DNA from: an uncultured bacterium
GTDB taxonomy: Bacteria > Lernaellota > Lernaellaia > Lernaellales > Lernaellaceae
Assembly (NCBI GenBank): GCA_964534375.1
Contig: CAZHPN010000167.1
Location: 1 to 13,364, forward strand
Direction: 5' to 3'
DNA: 13,364 bases
Part shown: in pieces, positions 1,675 through 9,894 of the stretch
Layout: each line of letters begins with the position of its first letter
Position numbering within the stretch: position 1 is the first letter of the stretch
Program-made: the position numbers and the translations under genes
Notes under the pieces: model-generated
The model's database searches: none
What the model was told of the DNA's origin: nothing
What the model saw: only the letters and a program-made list of their open reading frames with translations

Positions 1675-1993
1675 GAACTCCTCCGCGCACATTTTTGAGA
1701 TTACGCTGGCGTCACAGCGCGTTCAAGCAGCCGGACCGAATTTCGCGGTTTGGGAGTCCGCGGGCACGAGCGCCAGCGCCGAAAAGAGGGCGAGGGCGGT
1801 CAAGAGCCGGCGCAACAGCGGGCGTTCGAGGCGGCCGCCGCCGCTGTCCCGGCGGCGTCGCGATTGCGCGCCCGGCGATTCGCGCGTACCTTGAAAATAT
1901 GGCCCGGCGAGGCGATCCCGCCGAATTCCTCGAGACGTACGGCGCGCGGAAACGCCGCCTCACCGATTGCCCCGAGGGCACAGAGAAAACACC

Positions 1994-2893
1994 ATGAATG
2001 CTCGTCCGATTTTCAGCCGGGAGGCATGTACGCTCTGCGGGACGTGCGTGGCGGATTGTCCGCGCCGAATTCTCGCGATCGTCGACCAAGCGGTCGTTCT
2101 GACCGAAGACGCCTGCCTGCTCTGCGCGCACTGCTACGCTGTTTGTCCGGCGAACGCTGTCGCGTTCGATTCGGATCGATTGCAGGCGCCGACGTTTCGG
2201 ACGTTTGCGCCTCCCGAACAAGTGTTCGACGCGCAGCGCATCGACGCCACGATGTTGGCGGGCGCCGCGTTGTCGCGCCGCAGCATTCGCCGTTTCCAGG
2301 ACACGCCGGTTTCGCGGGAAGCGCTCGCCGACCTGGTCGAATTCGCGGCCACGGCGCCGTCGGGGAGCAACAGCCGGAATTGGGAGTTTTCCGTGGTGAG
2401 CACGGCCGCCGGCGTCGCCGCCGTGCGCGCCCGACTCGTCGCCTTTTACCGCCGGCTCAATCGCCTGGCGGGGAATCCCATCGTCCGGGCGCTGAGCGTG
2501 CCGGTCACGGGCAAGCGGCTGCTCGATTATCATCGCCTGCGGCGCGTCCGCATCGAGTTCATGGTTCGGCAGGCCGACGCCGGTCGCGATTTGTTCTTCT
2601 GGGGCGCGCCGGCCTTGATCGTCGTGCACAGCGGTCCGGACGGCAGCACGCCGCTCGAAGATGCGCAATACGCCGCCTACAACATCACTTTATTGGCGCA
2701 CGCGCTCGGTCTGGGAACCTGTTTCATCGGCTACGCGCGCGAAGCCGTCAACCGCGACGCCCGGCTCAAAACGCTGCTCGGCATTCCGCGGCGCCACAAG
2801 GCCCACGCGGTGCTGGCGGTCGGCCACCCGGACGTCAGCTATGCGCGATTGCCGCTGCGTAAAAATTTCCAGGTGAATTGGGTCGAAGCGTAG
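1994..2893 (+). CDS. Nitroreductase family protein with N-terminal 2x[4Fe-4S] ferredoxin domain
   Basis: Two CxxCxxCxxxCP motifs (CTLCGTCVADCP, CLLCAHCYAVCP), followed by nitroreductase motifs RRSIRRF, APSGSNSRNWEF and LAHALGLGTCFIG. ATG at 1994 chosen as start. Confidence 0.92.
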   Translation: MNARPIFSREACTLCGTCVADCPRRILAIVDQAVVLTEDACLLCAHCYAVCPANAVAFDSDRLQAPTFRTFAPPEQVFDAQRIDATMLAGAALSRRSIRRFQDTPVSREALADLVEFAATAPSGSNSRNWEFSVVSTAAGVAAVRARLVAFYRRLNRLAGNPIVRALSVPVTGKRLLDYHRLRRVRIEFMVRQADAGRDLFFWGAPALIVVHSGPDGSTPLEDAQYAAYNITLLAHALGLGTCFIGYAREAVNRDARLKTLLGIPRRHKAHAVLAVGHPDVSYARLPLRKNFQVNWVEA

Positions 2894-2925: not shown

Positions 2926-5264
<2,339 letters not shown>

Positions 5265-5386
5265 TCATTGTTTTCCGGCCCCGCGTAAAGACGCCCGGCG
5301 ACGGGCCAGCGCGCGGCCGAACGCGACCGGTCGCCGGGTGCGACGATCTCGCCGGGGCGCCCCGAACCGCGGGTGGGAAAGCGTCG

Positions 5387-5424
5387 ATGGGACGTATAGG
5401 TCTTATAGGACATATAGGTCCCAT
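5387..5424. repeat. 9-bp-period tandem repeat that is also an imperfect palindrome
   Basis: ATGGGACGT-ATAGGTCTT-ATAGGACAT-ATAGGTCCC-AT. The ends ATGGGAC and GTCCCAT are reverse complements. Confidence 0.8.
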
Positions 5425-5532
5425 ATCGGCGACAAACGGGCAAAAAAGGTCGCCTTTTTACGCGCCGAAACGAACAGCCGCTTCGCGAGCGGTTGCTCGC
5501 CGCGATCGACGCTCGATTGTCCCAGAAAAAGC

Positions 5533-5561
5533 TTGACTTCAATTGGCACAACCATTACCAT
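5533..5561 (+). promoter_or_regulatory. Putative sigma70 promoter for the nucleosidase-like/S53 unit
   Basis: TTGACT (5533-5538), 17-nt spacer, TACCAT (5556-5561), with an A-tract just upstream, in a locally AT-rich patch. Confidence 0.6.
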
Positions 5562-5729
5562 ATATCGGCAACATCGAATTACCGTCATCGAAGCGAACCG
5601 AAGGCGAACTCGCCCAGCGAGGGAACGGCATGCCGTTCTGCCGACGATCGTCATTTCGATATCGGGCGCGGCAGCCGCCCCGTCGAAATATCTGTCACAT
5701 AATAACCAAACACGGGGAGGGGAAACACG

Positions 5730-6833
5730 ATGAAACCACAAATTGATCCGCACGATTTGCACCTGAACTACAACCCGGAAGAACCGCAGGAACGGTTCAA
5801 AGCCGCGGGATTGGAGGCCGCGTTGACGGCGCGCGCCGGCGACCGCCTGCCCAGTGCGCCGCCGTGGCCGGCCGGGAAGGCGCCGGCGGCGGCGCCGTTG
5901 CCCAAAGCGCCCGCGGAAACCGACGACCTGTCGAAGTTTCGCGGCTACGACGCGGTGGTCGTCACCTGGACGTCGGCGGAAGCCGCGGCGCTGGCCGCGC
6001 TGTTCACGCCCGGTTATTCGACGTCGGCATGGTACGAATATCGGCATGACGTGGCCGCCTATTTGCCGCTGGTCACGGGCGGCCGGGCGCCGTTTAACGA
6101 CAAACAAACCGACATGGCCCGTTATTATCACAGCCTCGGCCTGTATTTCCCGGTCCGCATCGGCGGCGCCAAAGTCCTGGTGATGAAATCCGGCTTGCAC
6201 CTCGATTATGACGGGCCGGCGATCCCGGTGCGCAAGCTGATGGGCGAGATTGCCCAGGTGGTGCAACCGAAGGTGTTCATCACCACGGGCACCGGCGGCG
6301 GCATCGGCAGCGACGTGGCGCTCGGCGATGTGGTCATTGCCGGCAAAACCGTGTTCGATTGCGTCACCCAATTCAAAGACCCGCAGAAATTTCCGTGGAA
6401 CTGCGGCAGCTATTGCCCCGCGTCCGTCCCGCGCCAGGCCCTGGCCGCGATCACGCCCGCGTTGACGTACGTCAACGCCGCTCGCGTGCCGAACGCCCGG
6501 TCGACGCCGACGATCTGGTGCGCGCCCACCGACGCCATCGTGACGACGGACTTTTTCGGCTTCGACGATTCGACCGACTATTACCATCTTCAGGGGCTGG
6601 GCCGCGTCTGCGATATGGGCGACGCGATGGTCGGTTTGGCGATGCAGTCGTATCCGGACATCCAATGGTTCGCGATCCGCAACGCGTCCGACCCGCAGAT
6701 TCCGAATCCGAACCACGACATCAAGGCCGCCGACAAAGAAGCGGGGGAAATTTATTCCAAATATGGGGCGTTCACGACCGCGGCCAGCGTCATCGCGACG
6801 TGGGCGGTCATCGACGCCATCGTCAATCGATAG
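5730..6833 (+). CDS. Atypical PNP_UDP_1 / MTA-SAH nucleosidase-fold protein with N-terminal extension
   Basis: VVVTWTSAE (aligns to IIGAMEEE), FITTGTGGGIGSDVALGDVVIA (the GxAGG...GDVV signature), VTTDFF, DMGD (in place of EME) and AIRNASD (RxxSD). RBS GGGGAGGGG upstream. Confidence 0.72.
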   Translation: MKPQIDPHDLHLNYNPEEPQERFKAAGLEAALTARAGDRLPSAPPWPAGKAPAAAPLPKAPAETDDLSKFRGYDAVVVTWTSAEAAALAALFTPGYSTSAWYEYRHDVAAYLPLVTGGRAPFNDKQTDMARYYHSLGLYFPVRIGGAKVLVMKSGLHLDYDGPAIPVRKLMGEIAQVVQPKVFITTGTGGGIGSDVALGDVVIAGKTVFDCVTQFKDPQKFPWNCGSYCPASVPRQALAAITPALTYVNAARVPNARSTPTIWCAPTDAIVTTDFFGFDDSTDYYHLQGLGRVCDMGDAMVGLAMQSYPDIQWFAIRNASDPQIPNPNHDIKAADKEAGEIYSKYGAFTTAASVIATWAVIDAIVNR

Positions 6834-6880
6834 TCGACAGCGCAACGGGGTCGCAATTTCGAACCAGAAAGGAACCGAAG

Positions 6881-8515
6881 ATGAACCAGGCGAAACACGT
6901 GAAATTGAACGGGAGCGAGCGTGCGGTCATGCCCGGCGCGCAGGTCGCCCGGGCGGCCGATCCGGACGAATGCGTGGAATTGACCGTCAAGATCCGCGGC
7001 AAAGCGGCGATGCCGCCGCTCGAAGGGCGCCCGAGCGACATCCTGACGCACGCCCAATTGATCGAGAAATACGGCGCGGCGGATGCCGATATTCAGTTGG
7101 TGCGGAAAACGCTCGAACAGTACGGCCTCGATTTTGTCGAGGCGAACGCCGGCGCCCGCAGCATCCAATTCTGCGGGCCGGTGAGCGCGATCGAAAAAGC
7201 GTTTCAGGTGAAGTTGTTCCACTACACCCACGAGCAGGGCGACTACCGCGGGCGCGCCGGCGCCATCCATCTGCCGGCGGAACTCGACGGCGTCGTGGAA
7301 GGGGTCTTCGGCCTCGATACGCGCCGGGTGGTGCAAAGGCGCGGCGGGCACGGACACGCGGCCCGGGAGTTGACGGCGGCGACGATTGCGCGGCGGCCGT
7401 GGTTTTTCCCGGCGGAACTGGCGGCGCTCTATGATTTCCCGGCCGGCGACGGCGCGGGGCAGTGCGTCGGTCTGTTGGAGTTCGGCGGCGGCTATTTCCC
7501 GGCGGACCTGCAGGCTTTCTGCCAGACGGCCAAGGTCGGCGTGCCGAAAGTCACCGCGGTGAGCGTGAATCACACGGCGACGAACCGGCACGACGGCGCG
7601 GAAGGCGAGGTGATGCTGGACGTCGAGGTCGTCGCGGGGGTTTGCCCGAAGGCCGACATCGCCGTCTACTTCAGCAAATTCTCGGAAGCCGGGTGGGTCG
7701 CGGCGATCGACGCGGCGATTCACGACCAGAAAAACAATCCGTCGGTCATCTCGATCAGTTGGGGTTACGCCGAGGATTACGCCGGCGCTTGGACCACGGC
7801 CGCGATCAACGCCGTGAATCAAACCTTGCAGCAAGCGGCGATGCTCGGCAAAACCGTGTGCGTGGCGGCGGGCGACGACGGTTCCAGCGACGCGCAAACC
7901 GACGGCCACGCCCACGTGAATTTCCCGGCGACCAGCCCCTATGTGTTGGCGGTCGGCGGCACCACGGTCCGCAAGGCCGCGGGCAACGTGACGGAAGTCG
8001 CCTGGAAAGACGGCAGCGGCGTTCGCCCCAACGGCGGCAGCACCGGCGGCGGCGTCAGCACGCGCATTCCGCGGCCGGCCTGGCAGCACAACGTCGCGGT
8101 GCAATCGGTCAACCCCGGCGCGATGGCCGGTCGCGTCGTGCCGGATATCGCGGCCGACGCCAGCGCGAACACCGGTTACTGGACGGTGGTCGACGGGCAG
8201 GGCGAGCCGTCCGGCGGCACCAGCGCCTCGTCGCCGCTGTGGGCGGCGTTGATCGCGCGCATCAACGCGAAATTGCCGCAGGGCAAAGCGGCCGGTTATT
8301 TGACGCCGTTGCTGTACGCGAACGTGGCCGGCGGCACGATGGGCTCGACATGCTGCAAAGACATCACCAGCGGCAACAACGTGACGGCCGCGGTCGGCGG
8401 CTACTATGCGCAAGCCGGGTATGACGCCGTCACCGGCTGGGGCGCGCCCAACGGGAACAAATTGCTCGCGGCGCTCACGACGATGGTGGCCGGCGCCGGC
8501 GGCGCCAATACGTGA
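6881..8515 (+). CDS. S53 family (sedolisin/kumamolisin-like) serine-carboxyl peptidase with prodomain
   Basis: EVMLDVE (catalytic Glu/Asp), SISWG, AAGDDGS (oxyanion Asp), PATSPYVLAVGGT, GGTSASSPLWAA (catalytic Ser) and DITSGNN...GYDAVTGWG (Ca site). Prodomain ends near VEGVFGLD. AGAAAGGA RBS before ATG 6881. Confidence 0.95.
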   Translation: MNQAKHVKLNGSERAVMPGAQVARAADPDECVELTVKIRGKAAMPPLEGRPSDILTHAQLIEKYGAADADIQLVRKTLEQYGLDFVEANAGARSIQFCGPVSAIEKAFQVKLFHYTHEQGDYRGRAGAIHLPAELDGVVEGVFGLDTRRVVQRRGGHGHAARELTAATIARRPWFFPAELAALYDFPAGDGAGQCVGLLEFGGGYFPADLQAFCQTAKVGVPKVTAVSVNHTATNRHDGAEGEVMLDVEVVAGVCPKADIAVYFSKFSEAGWVAAIDAAIHDQKNNPSVISISWGYAEDYAGAWTTAAINAVNQTLQQAAMLGKTVCVAAGDDGSSDAQTDGHAHVNFPATSPYVLAVGGTTVRKAAGNVTEVAWKDGSGVRPNGGSTGGGVSTRIPRPAWQHNVAVQSVNPGAMAGRVVPDIAADASANTGYWTVVDGQGEPSGGTSASSPLWAALIARINAKLPQGKAAGYLTPLLYANVAGGTMGSTCCKDITSGNNVTAAVGGYYAQAGYDAVTGWGAPNGNKLLAALTTMVAGAGGANT

Positions 8516-8518
8516 ATG

Positions 8519-8555
8519 AAAACGCCGCCGGCGGCCGACGCCGGCGGCGTGGTTT
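8519..8555. terminator. Probable intrinsic, possibly bidirectional, terminator between convergent genes
   Basis: Perfect 12-bp stem ACGCCGCCGGCG (8522-8533) / CGCCGGCGGCGT (8539-8550) with a 5-nt loop, flanked by AAAA on the left and GGTTT on the right. The U-tracts are short. Confidence 0.65.
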
Positions 8556-8654
8556 CGGGTACCGAACGGCTTCTGCGGCGGCCATCGGATGGTCGCGGCG
8601 GCGCCGTGGCCGCAAGCGATCCAACCTCAGTCCAGTGCAGAACCCGCGGGCTGC

Positions 8655-9095
8655 CTATTCGGGCGACGAGTCCGGCGGGGCGGTATTGACGAAGAAGTAT
8701 TGAATGATTTGGTTGCTGACGCCGCCGTCGTCATCGACGAGGGTGAGAGTGATTTTGCCGTTGTAGACGGCTTGGGCGACGACAGTGAAGGAGATCGTGC
8801 CGGCGTTCGCGTTGCCGATGAGTTGCGGATCGACGACCGGAATCGGCATCGTCTGTCCGCTGTAGGTGTTGGTCGAGAGAATGTTGATCTGCGGCTTGGT
8901 CATGGCGCCTTCGGCGTCGCGCCAACTGATGATGAAGGTCGATTGGTCGCCGGCGGTCACCGGATTCGGGTAGATTTCGAGGCTTTCGGCAATGGGCGCG
9001 AGAATCTGCCGCGTCGTCGGCGTGTTGCAAGCCGCGAGAAATGCGCCAAGGCTTGCCAGCCCGACCAGCAATGGGATAAACCTAGCGCGCACCAT
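8655..9095 (-). CDS. Hypothetical lipoprotein (146 aa), beta-rich
   Basis: GGAGG RBS. Signal MVRARFIPLLVGLASLGAFLAAC ends in the lipobox LAAC. Mature part has alternating hydrophobic, beta-strand-like patterns. Confidence 0.8.
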   Translation of the reverse strand: MVRARFIPLLVGLASLGAFLAACNTPTTRQILAPIAESLEIYPNPVTAGDQSTFIISWRDAEGAMTKPQINILSTNTYSGQTMPIPVVDPQLIGNANAGTISFTVVAQAVYNGKITLTLVDDDGGVSNQIIQYFFVNTAPPDSSPE

Positions 9096-9180
9096 GGTCG
9101 CCGCCTCCGGTGAAAAACGGTGTGTTACTGTACCGGTTCCGAAAGAAACCGCAAGGGCGGGCAGCCGGGCGAGGTGAAAG

Positions 9181-9894
9181 TTGGCGATTGCATCCGATGC
9201 GGAATTGCAGCTGGCCATCGGCCACGAATTCAACGATCCGGCGCTGCTGCGGCAGGCGCTGACCCATTCCAGCTACGCCAATGAAGATCCGGGCGGCGAC
9301 GATTACGAACGCCTGGAATTCCTCGGCGACGCCGTGCTCGAACTGATCGTGTCGCACATGCTGCTCGACCGTTTCCCCGAATGCCGCGAGGGCGAATTGT
9401 CGCAAATGCGGGCCAGCGCGGTGAATCGCCGGACGCTGGCGGCGATCGGCCGCCGCCTGCGGCTGGGCGAGCACACGCGGATGAGCCACGGCGAAGAGAA
9501 GACCGGCGGGCGCGACAAGGACACGATTCTGGCGGACGTCTTCGAAGCGGTGATCGGTTCGCTTTATCTCGACGCCGGCCTCGGCGCAGCGGCGGCGTTC
9601 ATCGAACGCTGGTTCGATCTGCTGTTCGAGGGCTACGACCGCCGCATCCTGTTCACCGACTACAAGACGCGGTTGCAGGAGACGACGCAGGCGAGATTCG
9701 GCGCGGCGCCGACCTACCGGGTGCTCGGCGCGACCGGCCCGGACCACGACAAACGCTTCACGATCGAGGCGTCGCTGGGCAGCAAGATATTCGGGGTCGG
9801 CCAGGGACGCAGCAAGAAGGACGCCGAGCAGGAAGCGGCCAAGGCGGCGTTCGAGAAAATTTCGCAAGACGAAAAAGAAGCGGAGAAACGCTGA
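9181..9894 (+). CDS. rnc: Ribonuclease III
   Basis: ALTHSSY, ERLEFLGDAVL signature, ADVFEAVIGSLYLD and dsRBD (DYKTRLQE...GRSKKDAEQEAA). TTG start after GAGGTG. Confidence 0.97.
   Translation: MAIASDAELQLAIGHEFNDPALLRQALTHSSYANEDPGGDDYERLEFLGDAVLELIVSHMLLDRFPECREGELSQMRASAVNRRTLAAIGRRLRLGEHTRMSHGEEKTGGRDKDTILADVFEAVIGSLYLDAGLGAAAAFIERWFDLLFEGYDRRILFTDYKTRLQETTQARFGAAPTYRVLGATGPDHDKRFTIEASLGSKIFGVGQGRSKKDAEQEAAKAAFEKISQDEKEAEKR

Follow-up and report, generated by a model that had tools for sequence, protein, structure and literature searches.

The 13,364-nucleotide (nt) contig CAZHPN010000167.1 (assembly GCA_964534375.1), from an uncultured bacterium of the family Lernaellaceae, carries two adjacent plus-strand genes: the first, at 5730..6833, encodes a nucleosidase-like protein of 367 amino acids (aa), P0001, and the second, at 6881..8515, a peptidase of family S53 of 544 aa, P0002. 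The whole contig is called the window below. In other soil bacteria too, members of the nucleosidase family represented by P0001 either adjoin peptidases or are fused to them within one chain, and the peptidases so linked represent at least four families and three catalytic types. Nucleosidase and partner peptidase are very probably functionally coupled, and the two genes are best explained as one acquired, co-expressed module. By analogy with known protease-gated systems, and with somewhat less than an even chance of being right, we read the pair as a protease-coupled nucleosidase pro-enzyme acting in conflict or stress.

Peptidases linked to the nucleosidase family

The evidence for coupling comes from relatives of P0001. 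The survey comprised 88 loci, 8 from genomes (found with a single-protein query) and 80 from metagenomes (the best 80 of 525 relatives); the window's own sequence (L024) is counted among them, and near-identical loci were kept (L085/L087, L055/L057 and L041/L043, for example). Peptidase genes near these loci were sought by tblastn with the partner domains, and a gene within 600 nt was scored as adjacent. A peptidase is adjacent at 41 of the 88 loci. Where the flanks are long enough to judge well, with at least 900 nt on either side (43 loci), the figure is 22: 12 with a peptidase type designated X, 6 with S53, 2 with papain (Pfam C1) and 2 with pepsin-type A1. The peptidase lies on the same strand as the nucleosidase gene in 21 of these 22, and loci with shorter flanks give 19 of 45. 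More distant PNP-like proteins (35–41% identity) also adjoin C1 or X peptidases, at L117 and L118. Some loci have two peptidases (L026 and L076), and at L065 (2720-5640) one strand carries genes for a PNP-like protein, a 183-aa protein that has hydrophobic stretches, a GDSL lipase and a pepsin-type A1 protease.

Fusions tell the same story. Among 54 homologues of at least 644 aa, the extra domain is Peptidase_C1 (PF00112) in 24, a Pro-kumamolisin domain (PF09286) in 19, a pepsin-type Asp domain (PF00026) in 1 and X (270 aa, without a Pfam match) in 5; the other 5, more distant, have other N-terminal domains. Single-chain fusions to C1, X, S53 or A1 therefore make up 49 of the 54. Domain order varies: the nucleosidase precedes S53 in P0149 and follows it in P0151, and X precedes the nucleosidase in P0328. 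The fused forms are single open frames on the DNA at L044, L066, L071 and L103. The sequence-only reading of the window had supposed a pairing with S53 enzymes in particular; linkage to peptidases does recur, but S53 is just one of at least four interchangeable families, X being the commonest.

By its sequence, X is a divergent papain-like peptidase. Aligned with the C1 partners by hhalign it gives a probability of 90.9% (E 1.1e-6), and the Cys motif (GDCTCAA) and the His motif (GGHAV) are in register; its best match among Protein Data Bank (PDB) entries is the cysteine protease 3ois (E 0.03), and it also matches phrog_19005. In one X-type peptidase, P0181 (588 aa), an intein (PF14890, precomputed) interrupts the chain at the very site of the catalytic-Cys motif. 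Further fusions join X to a PF04185 phosphoesterase, one of phospholipase C/acid phosphatase type, and to a glycoside-hydrolase-like domain, PF08924 (P0179, P0184 and P0185); no signal peptide was seen on reading the N-termini of these three proteins.

A fifth partner, Y, of 280–291 aa and of no recognised fold, stands beside seven loci (L006, at 7164-8039; L101, at 3929-4768; L056, L083, L095, L098 and L102) and is fused to the PNP-like domain in P0250. Its S-H-E-x-x-E-M-L-V-D-P motif is invariant, and neither Pfam nor PHROGs gave a match to the protein. In the ESM Atlas the clusters closest to Y consist of hypothetical proteins, and in two of the top three the known taxon that occurs most often is tailed phages; an AlphaFold model from three sequences (predicted local distance difference test, pLDDT, 39) was unusable.

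On the nucleosidase tree, one type of partner has given way to another many times over. This tree, a quick IQ-TREE run under LG+G4, has 108 PNP-domain rows: the window, 82 of the other 87 loci (five, with a best match shorter than 300 residues or containing a stop, were omitted) and 25 fused proteins picked from the 54 (plus two further proteins). Partner labels change at least 20 times on it, the minimum possible being 4; shuffled labels change 42.4 times on average, and none of 200 shuffles came as low as the observed value. Well-supported branches alone force at least seven changes for S53 and at least six for X. The rows nearest to the window are L026 (77% identity; A1 gene upstream, X gene downstream) and three X-bearing loci. 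Catalytic residues are kept in the nucleosidase and in the peptidases.

PNP-like domains also occur in other company. One paralogue clade (P0172, P0174-P0176, P0203, P0222, P0234, P0266 and P0249) is fused to a 480-aa N-terminal domain without a Pfam match, in which the motifs H-E-T-G-G-H (H-E-x-x-x-H) and D-E-A-A-x-D are kept in four of five aligned proteins (P0172 and P0174-P0176); the domain might be a metal-dependent hydrolase. A reading of it as an HExxH peptidase was dropped, the motif being H-E-x-x-x-H, and no peptidase assignment is made. In PNP-like domains that are still more remote, the fusion partner is a long pentapeptide-repeat region or an HU DNA-binding domain; others stand in tandem or carry a 130-aa C-terminal extension (P0242, P0262, P0314, P0268 and P0187-P0201).

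Such variety invites a perspective in which the effector is the protease, with the PNP-like domain as its regulator or sensor; by binding or consuming a nucleoside or nucleotide, a metabolite or a signal, this domain would switch the peptidase on or off. Fusions in both domain orders would suit it, as would the fusion of the PNP-like domain to modules other than peptidases (pentapeptide repeats, HU and a pair of domains of unrecognised fold) and of X itself to the PF04185 and PF08924 hydrolases; Aravind's group has, in the accessible part of PMC7159879, proposed PNPase-superfamily domains as makers of base-release signals. We nevertheless think this arrangement unlikely. The nucleosidase is the constant member, at 57–78% identity across Verrucomicrobiota, Planctomycetota, Acidobacteriota, Gemmatimonadota, Acetobacteraceae, Binataceae and Methylomirabilota (by record titles), with invariant catalytic residues, whereas the peptidases are swapped; that is the pattern of a common effector with exchangeable accessories.

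The two proteins of the pair

P0001 belongs to the PNP_UDP_1 superfamily (PF01048; 32.5 bits, cut-off 25.1). An AlphaFold model built from an alignment of 21 homologues (pLDDT 90.6) superposes, over residues 71-367, on 5'-methylthioadenosine/S-adenosylhomocysteine (MTA/SAH) nucleosidase (MTAN) with Z 20.5 and a root-mean-square deviation of 3.1 Å over 223 residues. The top 43 structural matches of the model are MTAN or futalosine hydrolase, with purine nucleoside phosphorylases next (Z about 18); a search of the PDB with the family profile likewise puts MTANs first (E 1.5e-5). Residues 1-70 form an N-terminal extension with no MTAN counterpart, conserved and confidently modelled all the same, and there are inserts relative to MTAN as well.

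Invariant in the 21 homologues are E84, T185-T186-G187-T188, M296-G297-D298 and R317-N318-S320-D321; D295 is nearly so, and the TTGTGG motif as a whole is invariant or nearly so. The RNASD motif occupies residues 317-321, and D321 aligns, in the profile alignment, with the Asp of the MTAN RAISD motif. E84 would fall at MTAN residue 12, a position reached only through the offset of the structural alignment. In MTAN, Asp197 is the catalytic acid and Glu12 the water-activating residue (PDB titles name mutants of both), and the ribose-binding motif is E-M-E, where P0001 reads D-M-G-D. P0001 thus has the appearance of a working N-ribosyl hydrolase whose ribose-binding motif has changed.

It is not, by these measures, an ordinary MtnN. 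The fold of residues 71-367 is common to MtnN/Pfs and futalosine hydrolase, and a RAISD-type motif of those enzymes aligns with RNASD; P0001 differs from MtnN/Pfs in being only about 14% identical, 367 aa long against about 230, extended by 70 residues and interrupted by inserts, with D-M-G-D for E-M-E. Its family, too, is rare, patchy and peptidase-linked. Against the MtnN equivalog models TIGR01704 and NF004079 it scores 13 and 18.6 bits, far under the cut-offs of 73.8 and 169, and MtnN orthology was rejected on these scores. The description of 5730..6833 as an atypical gene of nucleosidase fold stands. The same genome holds two canonical PF01048 genes (150.7 and 117.8 bits) and a paralogue of P0001, 37% identical and 394 aa long (G000:C203:6936-7913, minus strand; locus L002, 1480-2661, minus strand), which has Sel1-repeat genes on both sides and adjoins none of the genome's S53-like genes.

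P0002 is a full-length S53 enzyme in its sequence features. It matches Pro-kuma_activ (PF09286) at 63.8 bits and aligns with pro-kumamolisin 1t1e over residues 59-534, prodomain and catalytic domain together (E 4.3e-104), with the E-x-x-x-D, GDDGS and GGTS positions in register; activation domain, Ser-Glu-Asp positions and oxyanion Asp are all present. E243, D247, D332 and S448 are invariant among eight partner S53 sequences, and GGTS is residues 445-448. Identity to the seven other aligned partner S53s is 28–43%, and to the S53 part of P0151 it is 50%. Unlike pro-kumamolisin and the sedolisins, which it otherwise resembles over both domains and at the Glu, Asp, Ser and second Asp positions, P0002 lacks a signal peptide and is encoded second in a nucleosidase-like pair, the two being fused in relatives. 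As the sequence-only reading had held, neither protein has a signal peptide: no hydrophobic N-terminal stretch was found in either, the top 12-residue hydropathy within the first 70 residues being 0.91 in P0001 and 0.78 in P0002.

Could the two genes be neighbours by chance alone, the first encoding a housekeeping MTA/SAH nucleosidase and the second a protease with no relation to it? The MTAN-like fold would allow it, and no TIGR01704-type MTAN was found in the genome (94% complete). The equivalog scores just given are far too low for that role, however; adjacency, fusions and partner swaps are documented, the gene was found in none of the 60 related genomes searched (see below), and the open frames at the four loci named above argue against fusions as gene-calling artefacts. 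Chance adjacency of a PNP-like gene and a peptidase gene is also negligible, because the genome has only five S53/S8-like matches in 6.3 Mb. The explanation is very improbable and close to refuted.

The locus and the distribution of the family

Within the window the arrangement read from the sequence alone (a PNP_UDP_1-fold gene, a 47-nt gap and an S53 gene with intact catalytic motifs, set between ligA and lipoprotein/rnc) was confirmed from open reading frames (ORFs), Pfam matches and alignments. The gap (6834..6880, plus strand) contains an AGGA ribosome-binding site. Upstream is an untranslated leader (5562..5729, plus strand) with a GGAGG ribosome-binding site ahead of the ATG; it has no Rfam match on the gene strand at E up to 1 (the sole hit, on the minus strand, is sub-threshold at E 0.27), and it folds no better than shuffled sequence (z -1.53).

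The signals that bound the unit fared less evenly. A sigma-70-like promoter candidate, TTGACT-17 nt-TACCAT (5533..5561, plus strand), does match 9 of 12 consensus positions, but one such site was found where shuffled sequences give 0.6 +/- 0.7, and on its own it is no better than chance. At the other end, a strong G+C-rich hairpin (8522..8550; 12 pairs, 11 of them G-C) lies between the convergent S53 and lipoprotein genes as a terminator might, but its T-run is only on the minus-strand side.

The pair is present in RNA libraries. Three studies contribute contigs 100% identical to the window, from four metatranscriptome runs with the label wetland or metagenome. Most of either gene is covered; the 47-nt gap is bridged by one contig per run, and one contig begins at 5607, in the leader, downstream of the promoter candidate. 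Within 4800-9400, cover is missing over ligA, 7264-7571 and 8496-8800, a pattern that is uninterpretable.

The remaining genes of the window, assigned by Pfam unless stated, are an FGE-sulfatase gene (PF03781; 310-1692, minus strand), a ferredoxin/nitroreductase gene (1967-2893, plus strand), an acylphosphatase gene, ligA (3192-5261, minus strand), a lipoprotein ORF (8655-9233, minus strand), rnc (9181-9894, plus strand), era and der listed after rnc, and a second FGE-sulfatase gene (PF03781; 12435-13169, plus strand). The lipoprotein label, taken over from the earlier reading, is right: counted from an internal Met, a signal-like stretch ends in the lipobox LAAC. An FGE-S domain is among the partners of immune PNP domains listed in the accessible part of Rousset et al. 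(10.1101/2023.01.24.525353); the two FGE-sulfatase genes stand at opposite ends of the window, parted from the pair by housekeeping genes, and are treated as a coincidence.

The family is rare and horizontally spread. Its wider membership comes to 224 representatives (50% clustering, E 1e-30) and 525 metagenome loci, the metagenome holders being wetland or peat by run labels. Around the window's genome, P0001 was found in none of 60 other genomes (7 of the same family, 9 of the same class and 44 from further away) and P0002 in none of the 16 nearest at E 1e-20, which bears out the expected patchiness. A sample of the family to which the genome of L007 belongs gave a match in 13 of 301 genomes at E 1e-40; two of the 13 copies are broken, and five have a peptidase in their 1.5-kb flanks, two of these five being only 35–41% identical to P0001. 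In a further broken copy (L107/L108, in the genome of L008) a frameshift lies near residue 132.

Comparison with relatives bears on how the pair arrived. The segments era-rnc-lipoprotein and ligA-acylphosphatase are syntenic in three genomes of the same family (L021-L023), and the interval that holds only the pair in the window's genome is filled in these relatives by about 8.7 kb of unrelated genes (MiaB-like, PfkB, ferredoxin, FadL-like, GGDEF and PMT_2 in the two that are annotated); the site has therefore been rearranged. A search for direct and inverted repeats gave only G+C-rich, chance-like matches and no flanking repeats marking an insertion, and no mobile-element genes lie at the borders of the pair. 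At 0.62-0.68 the pair's G+C content is inside the range of the window (0.62-0.69). PHROGs gave no match to P0001 or P0002.

Possible roles of the pair

The pair can be seen as co-operating catabolic hydrolases for acidic habitats, serving nutrient recovery after non-classical release, after lysis or in starvation. S53, A1 and C1 are acid-active digestive families; the holders come from metagenomes labelled wetland or peat; two loci have two peptidases each, and a GDSL lipase gene lies between the nucleosidase and A1 genes in L065; the neighbours are otherwise metabolic, and the pair appears in RNA libraries without any known induction. The difficulties are of several kinds. Neither protein of the pair has a signal peptide, and none was noticed when the fused forms were read; a digestive role would not explain why nucleosidase and endopeptidase should be joined in a single chain, and in both orders; a family present in 13 of 301 genomes and not found in close relatives would be unusual for a nutritional function; and the genome already has two canonical PNP-fold enzymes. 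We regard a purely nutritional role as doubtful, with a small but real share of the probability.

The reading we prefer starts from the peptidase. It most likely supplies a generic cut, and not a specific catabolic reaction, because peptidases of three catalytic types substitute for one another and the nucleosidase stays constant. The nucleosidase would be made as a latent pro-enzyme, restrained by the family-specific N-terminal extension or by the inserts; the S53 zymogen would start by removing its prodomain, a step that kumamolisin takes at low pH; once active, it would cleave the nucleosidase (in fused forms, the linker), and hydrolysis of a pool of nucleosides or nucleotides would be released. 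Conflict or stress would be the likely setting, in the manner of abortive infection. The direction of the cut and the conflict role are both drawn by analogy, and we hold them tentatively, at a little under half.

The closest published parallel comes from the accessible part of PMC12799240, in which pro-nucleases of Hachiman, AVAST and canu are gated by inserts and cut by partner trypsin-like or caspase proteases; a latent nucleosidase is therefore favoured here. With these pairs, and with gasdermin-protease pairs, the present family would share a co-inherited enzyme pair, inserts in the effector and partner proteases of different families, and the linkage of effector gene to protease gene is conserved, in 22 of 43 well-flanked loci and 49 of 54 long homologues. 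The pairs described in that part of PMC12799240 sit in sensor-bearing immune systems, whereas here no sensor is present, the effector is a nucleosidase and the proteases are acid-type (S53, A1 and C1). Neither an infection sensor nor attachment to an immune system was found for P0001 and P0002.

A likeness to the immune ATP nucleosidases Cap17 and DtcC had been proposed from the sequence alone. It extends to the use of the PNP_UDP_1 domain as a module with variable partners and to a patchy distribution. The differences are that no CBASS, Detocs, Avs or pAgo genes lie near P0001 and that the partners are peptidases, a kind of partner that the accessible part of Rousset et al. (10.1101/2023.01.24.525353) does not describe for bacterial PNP domains. 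A full-text search of the published literature found no pairing of a PNP-fold protein with S53, C1 or A1 peptidases; tables S3 and S4 of the Rousset preprint were outside its scope and might list such a clade.

Several results weigh against a conflict module. The earlier reading looked to a defence island and to the immune nucleosidases, and neither expectation held: no known defence gene, and no defence island, was found in the window or in about 20 annotated neighbourhoods, and PADLOC, run at E up to 1, gave no match to Cap17 or DtcC (models that we assume PADLOC v2 to include), its sole hit being PDC-M60C at E 0.012. What survives of that reading is the peptidase-nucleosidase functional unit, through adjacency, fusions and patchiness. 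Only Cap17, among the PNP clades treated in the accessible part of Rousset et al., is enriched near defence systems. Pfam shows no sensor domain in P0001, in P0002 or in the same neighbourhoods. A tblastn search with P0001 found no relatives on plasmids or phages, and among IMG/VR viral contigs none of 65 pattern matches was a relative.

Other objections concern the enzymes and their genes. Enzymes of the kumamolisin type are active in acid, an odd property where the cytoplasm is neutral, and the N-terminal regions of the papain-like partners are only short. The loci with two peptidases (L026 and L076), the GDSL lipase of L065 and the X-PF04185 and X-PF08924 fusions resemble a hydrolase toolkit. 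Of the 43 loci with long flanks, 21 show none of the four peptidase families; the fifth partner is present at two of them, the remaining 19 have ordinary metabolic neighbours, and the nucleosidase can evidently stand alone. Three of 16 genome copies are broken (a frameshift in G068, a TAG codon in G202, fragments in G280), which suggests that the gene is dispensable. Finally, the RNA-library contigs are no proof of a single transcript, and DNA carry-over is possible.

A further perspective would turn the acid preference into the trigger: a self-contained, sensor-less suicide or defence module of acidic-habitat bacteria, fired by physical state. A phage, toxin or predator would breach the membrane and let outside acid into the cytoplasm; a latent acid-type zymogen (S53, pepsin-type or papain-type) would activate itself and cut the nucleosidase pro-enzyme, and the nucleotide pool would be destroyed. 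The idea rests on the partner families being acid-activated zymogens and on holders labelled wetland or peat; since any acid-triggered protease would serve, it would account for the free exchange of unrelated catalytic types. Pepsin and the cathepsins are acid-activated zymogens. For sedolisins this property is established, and published abstracts term them, kumamolisin included, acid proteases. We put this version forward as a long shot, improbable as it stands.

If the preferred reading of a protease-gated nucleosidase is true, the family would join two recent discoveries, the immune PNP-fold nucleosidases and the protease-activated effector pairs, and would bring in acid-type proteases (sedolisin, pepsin-like and papain-like). 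We know of no role assigned to acid-type proteases inside bacterial cells. If the pair is digestive instead, it would still define a hydrolase set, cytoplasmically encoded and so far unreported, in bacteria of peat and soil. The system consists of two small soluble proteins with known catalytic residues, in natural fused and split versions. The family is large, at 224 representatives and 525 metagenome loci, and its fusions make the coupling of nucleosidase and peptidase hard to dispute; the coupling of one nucleosidase with swappable proteases almost certainly works in a way not yet described.

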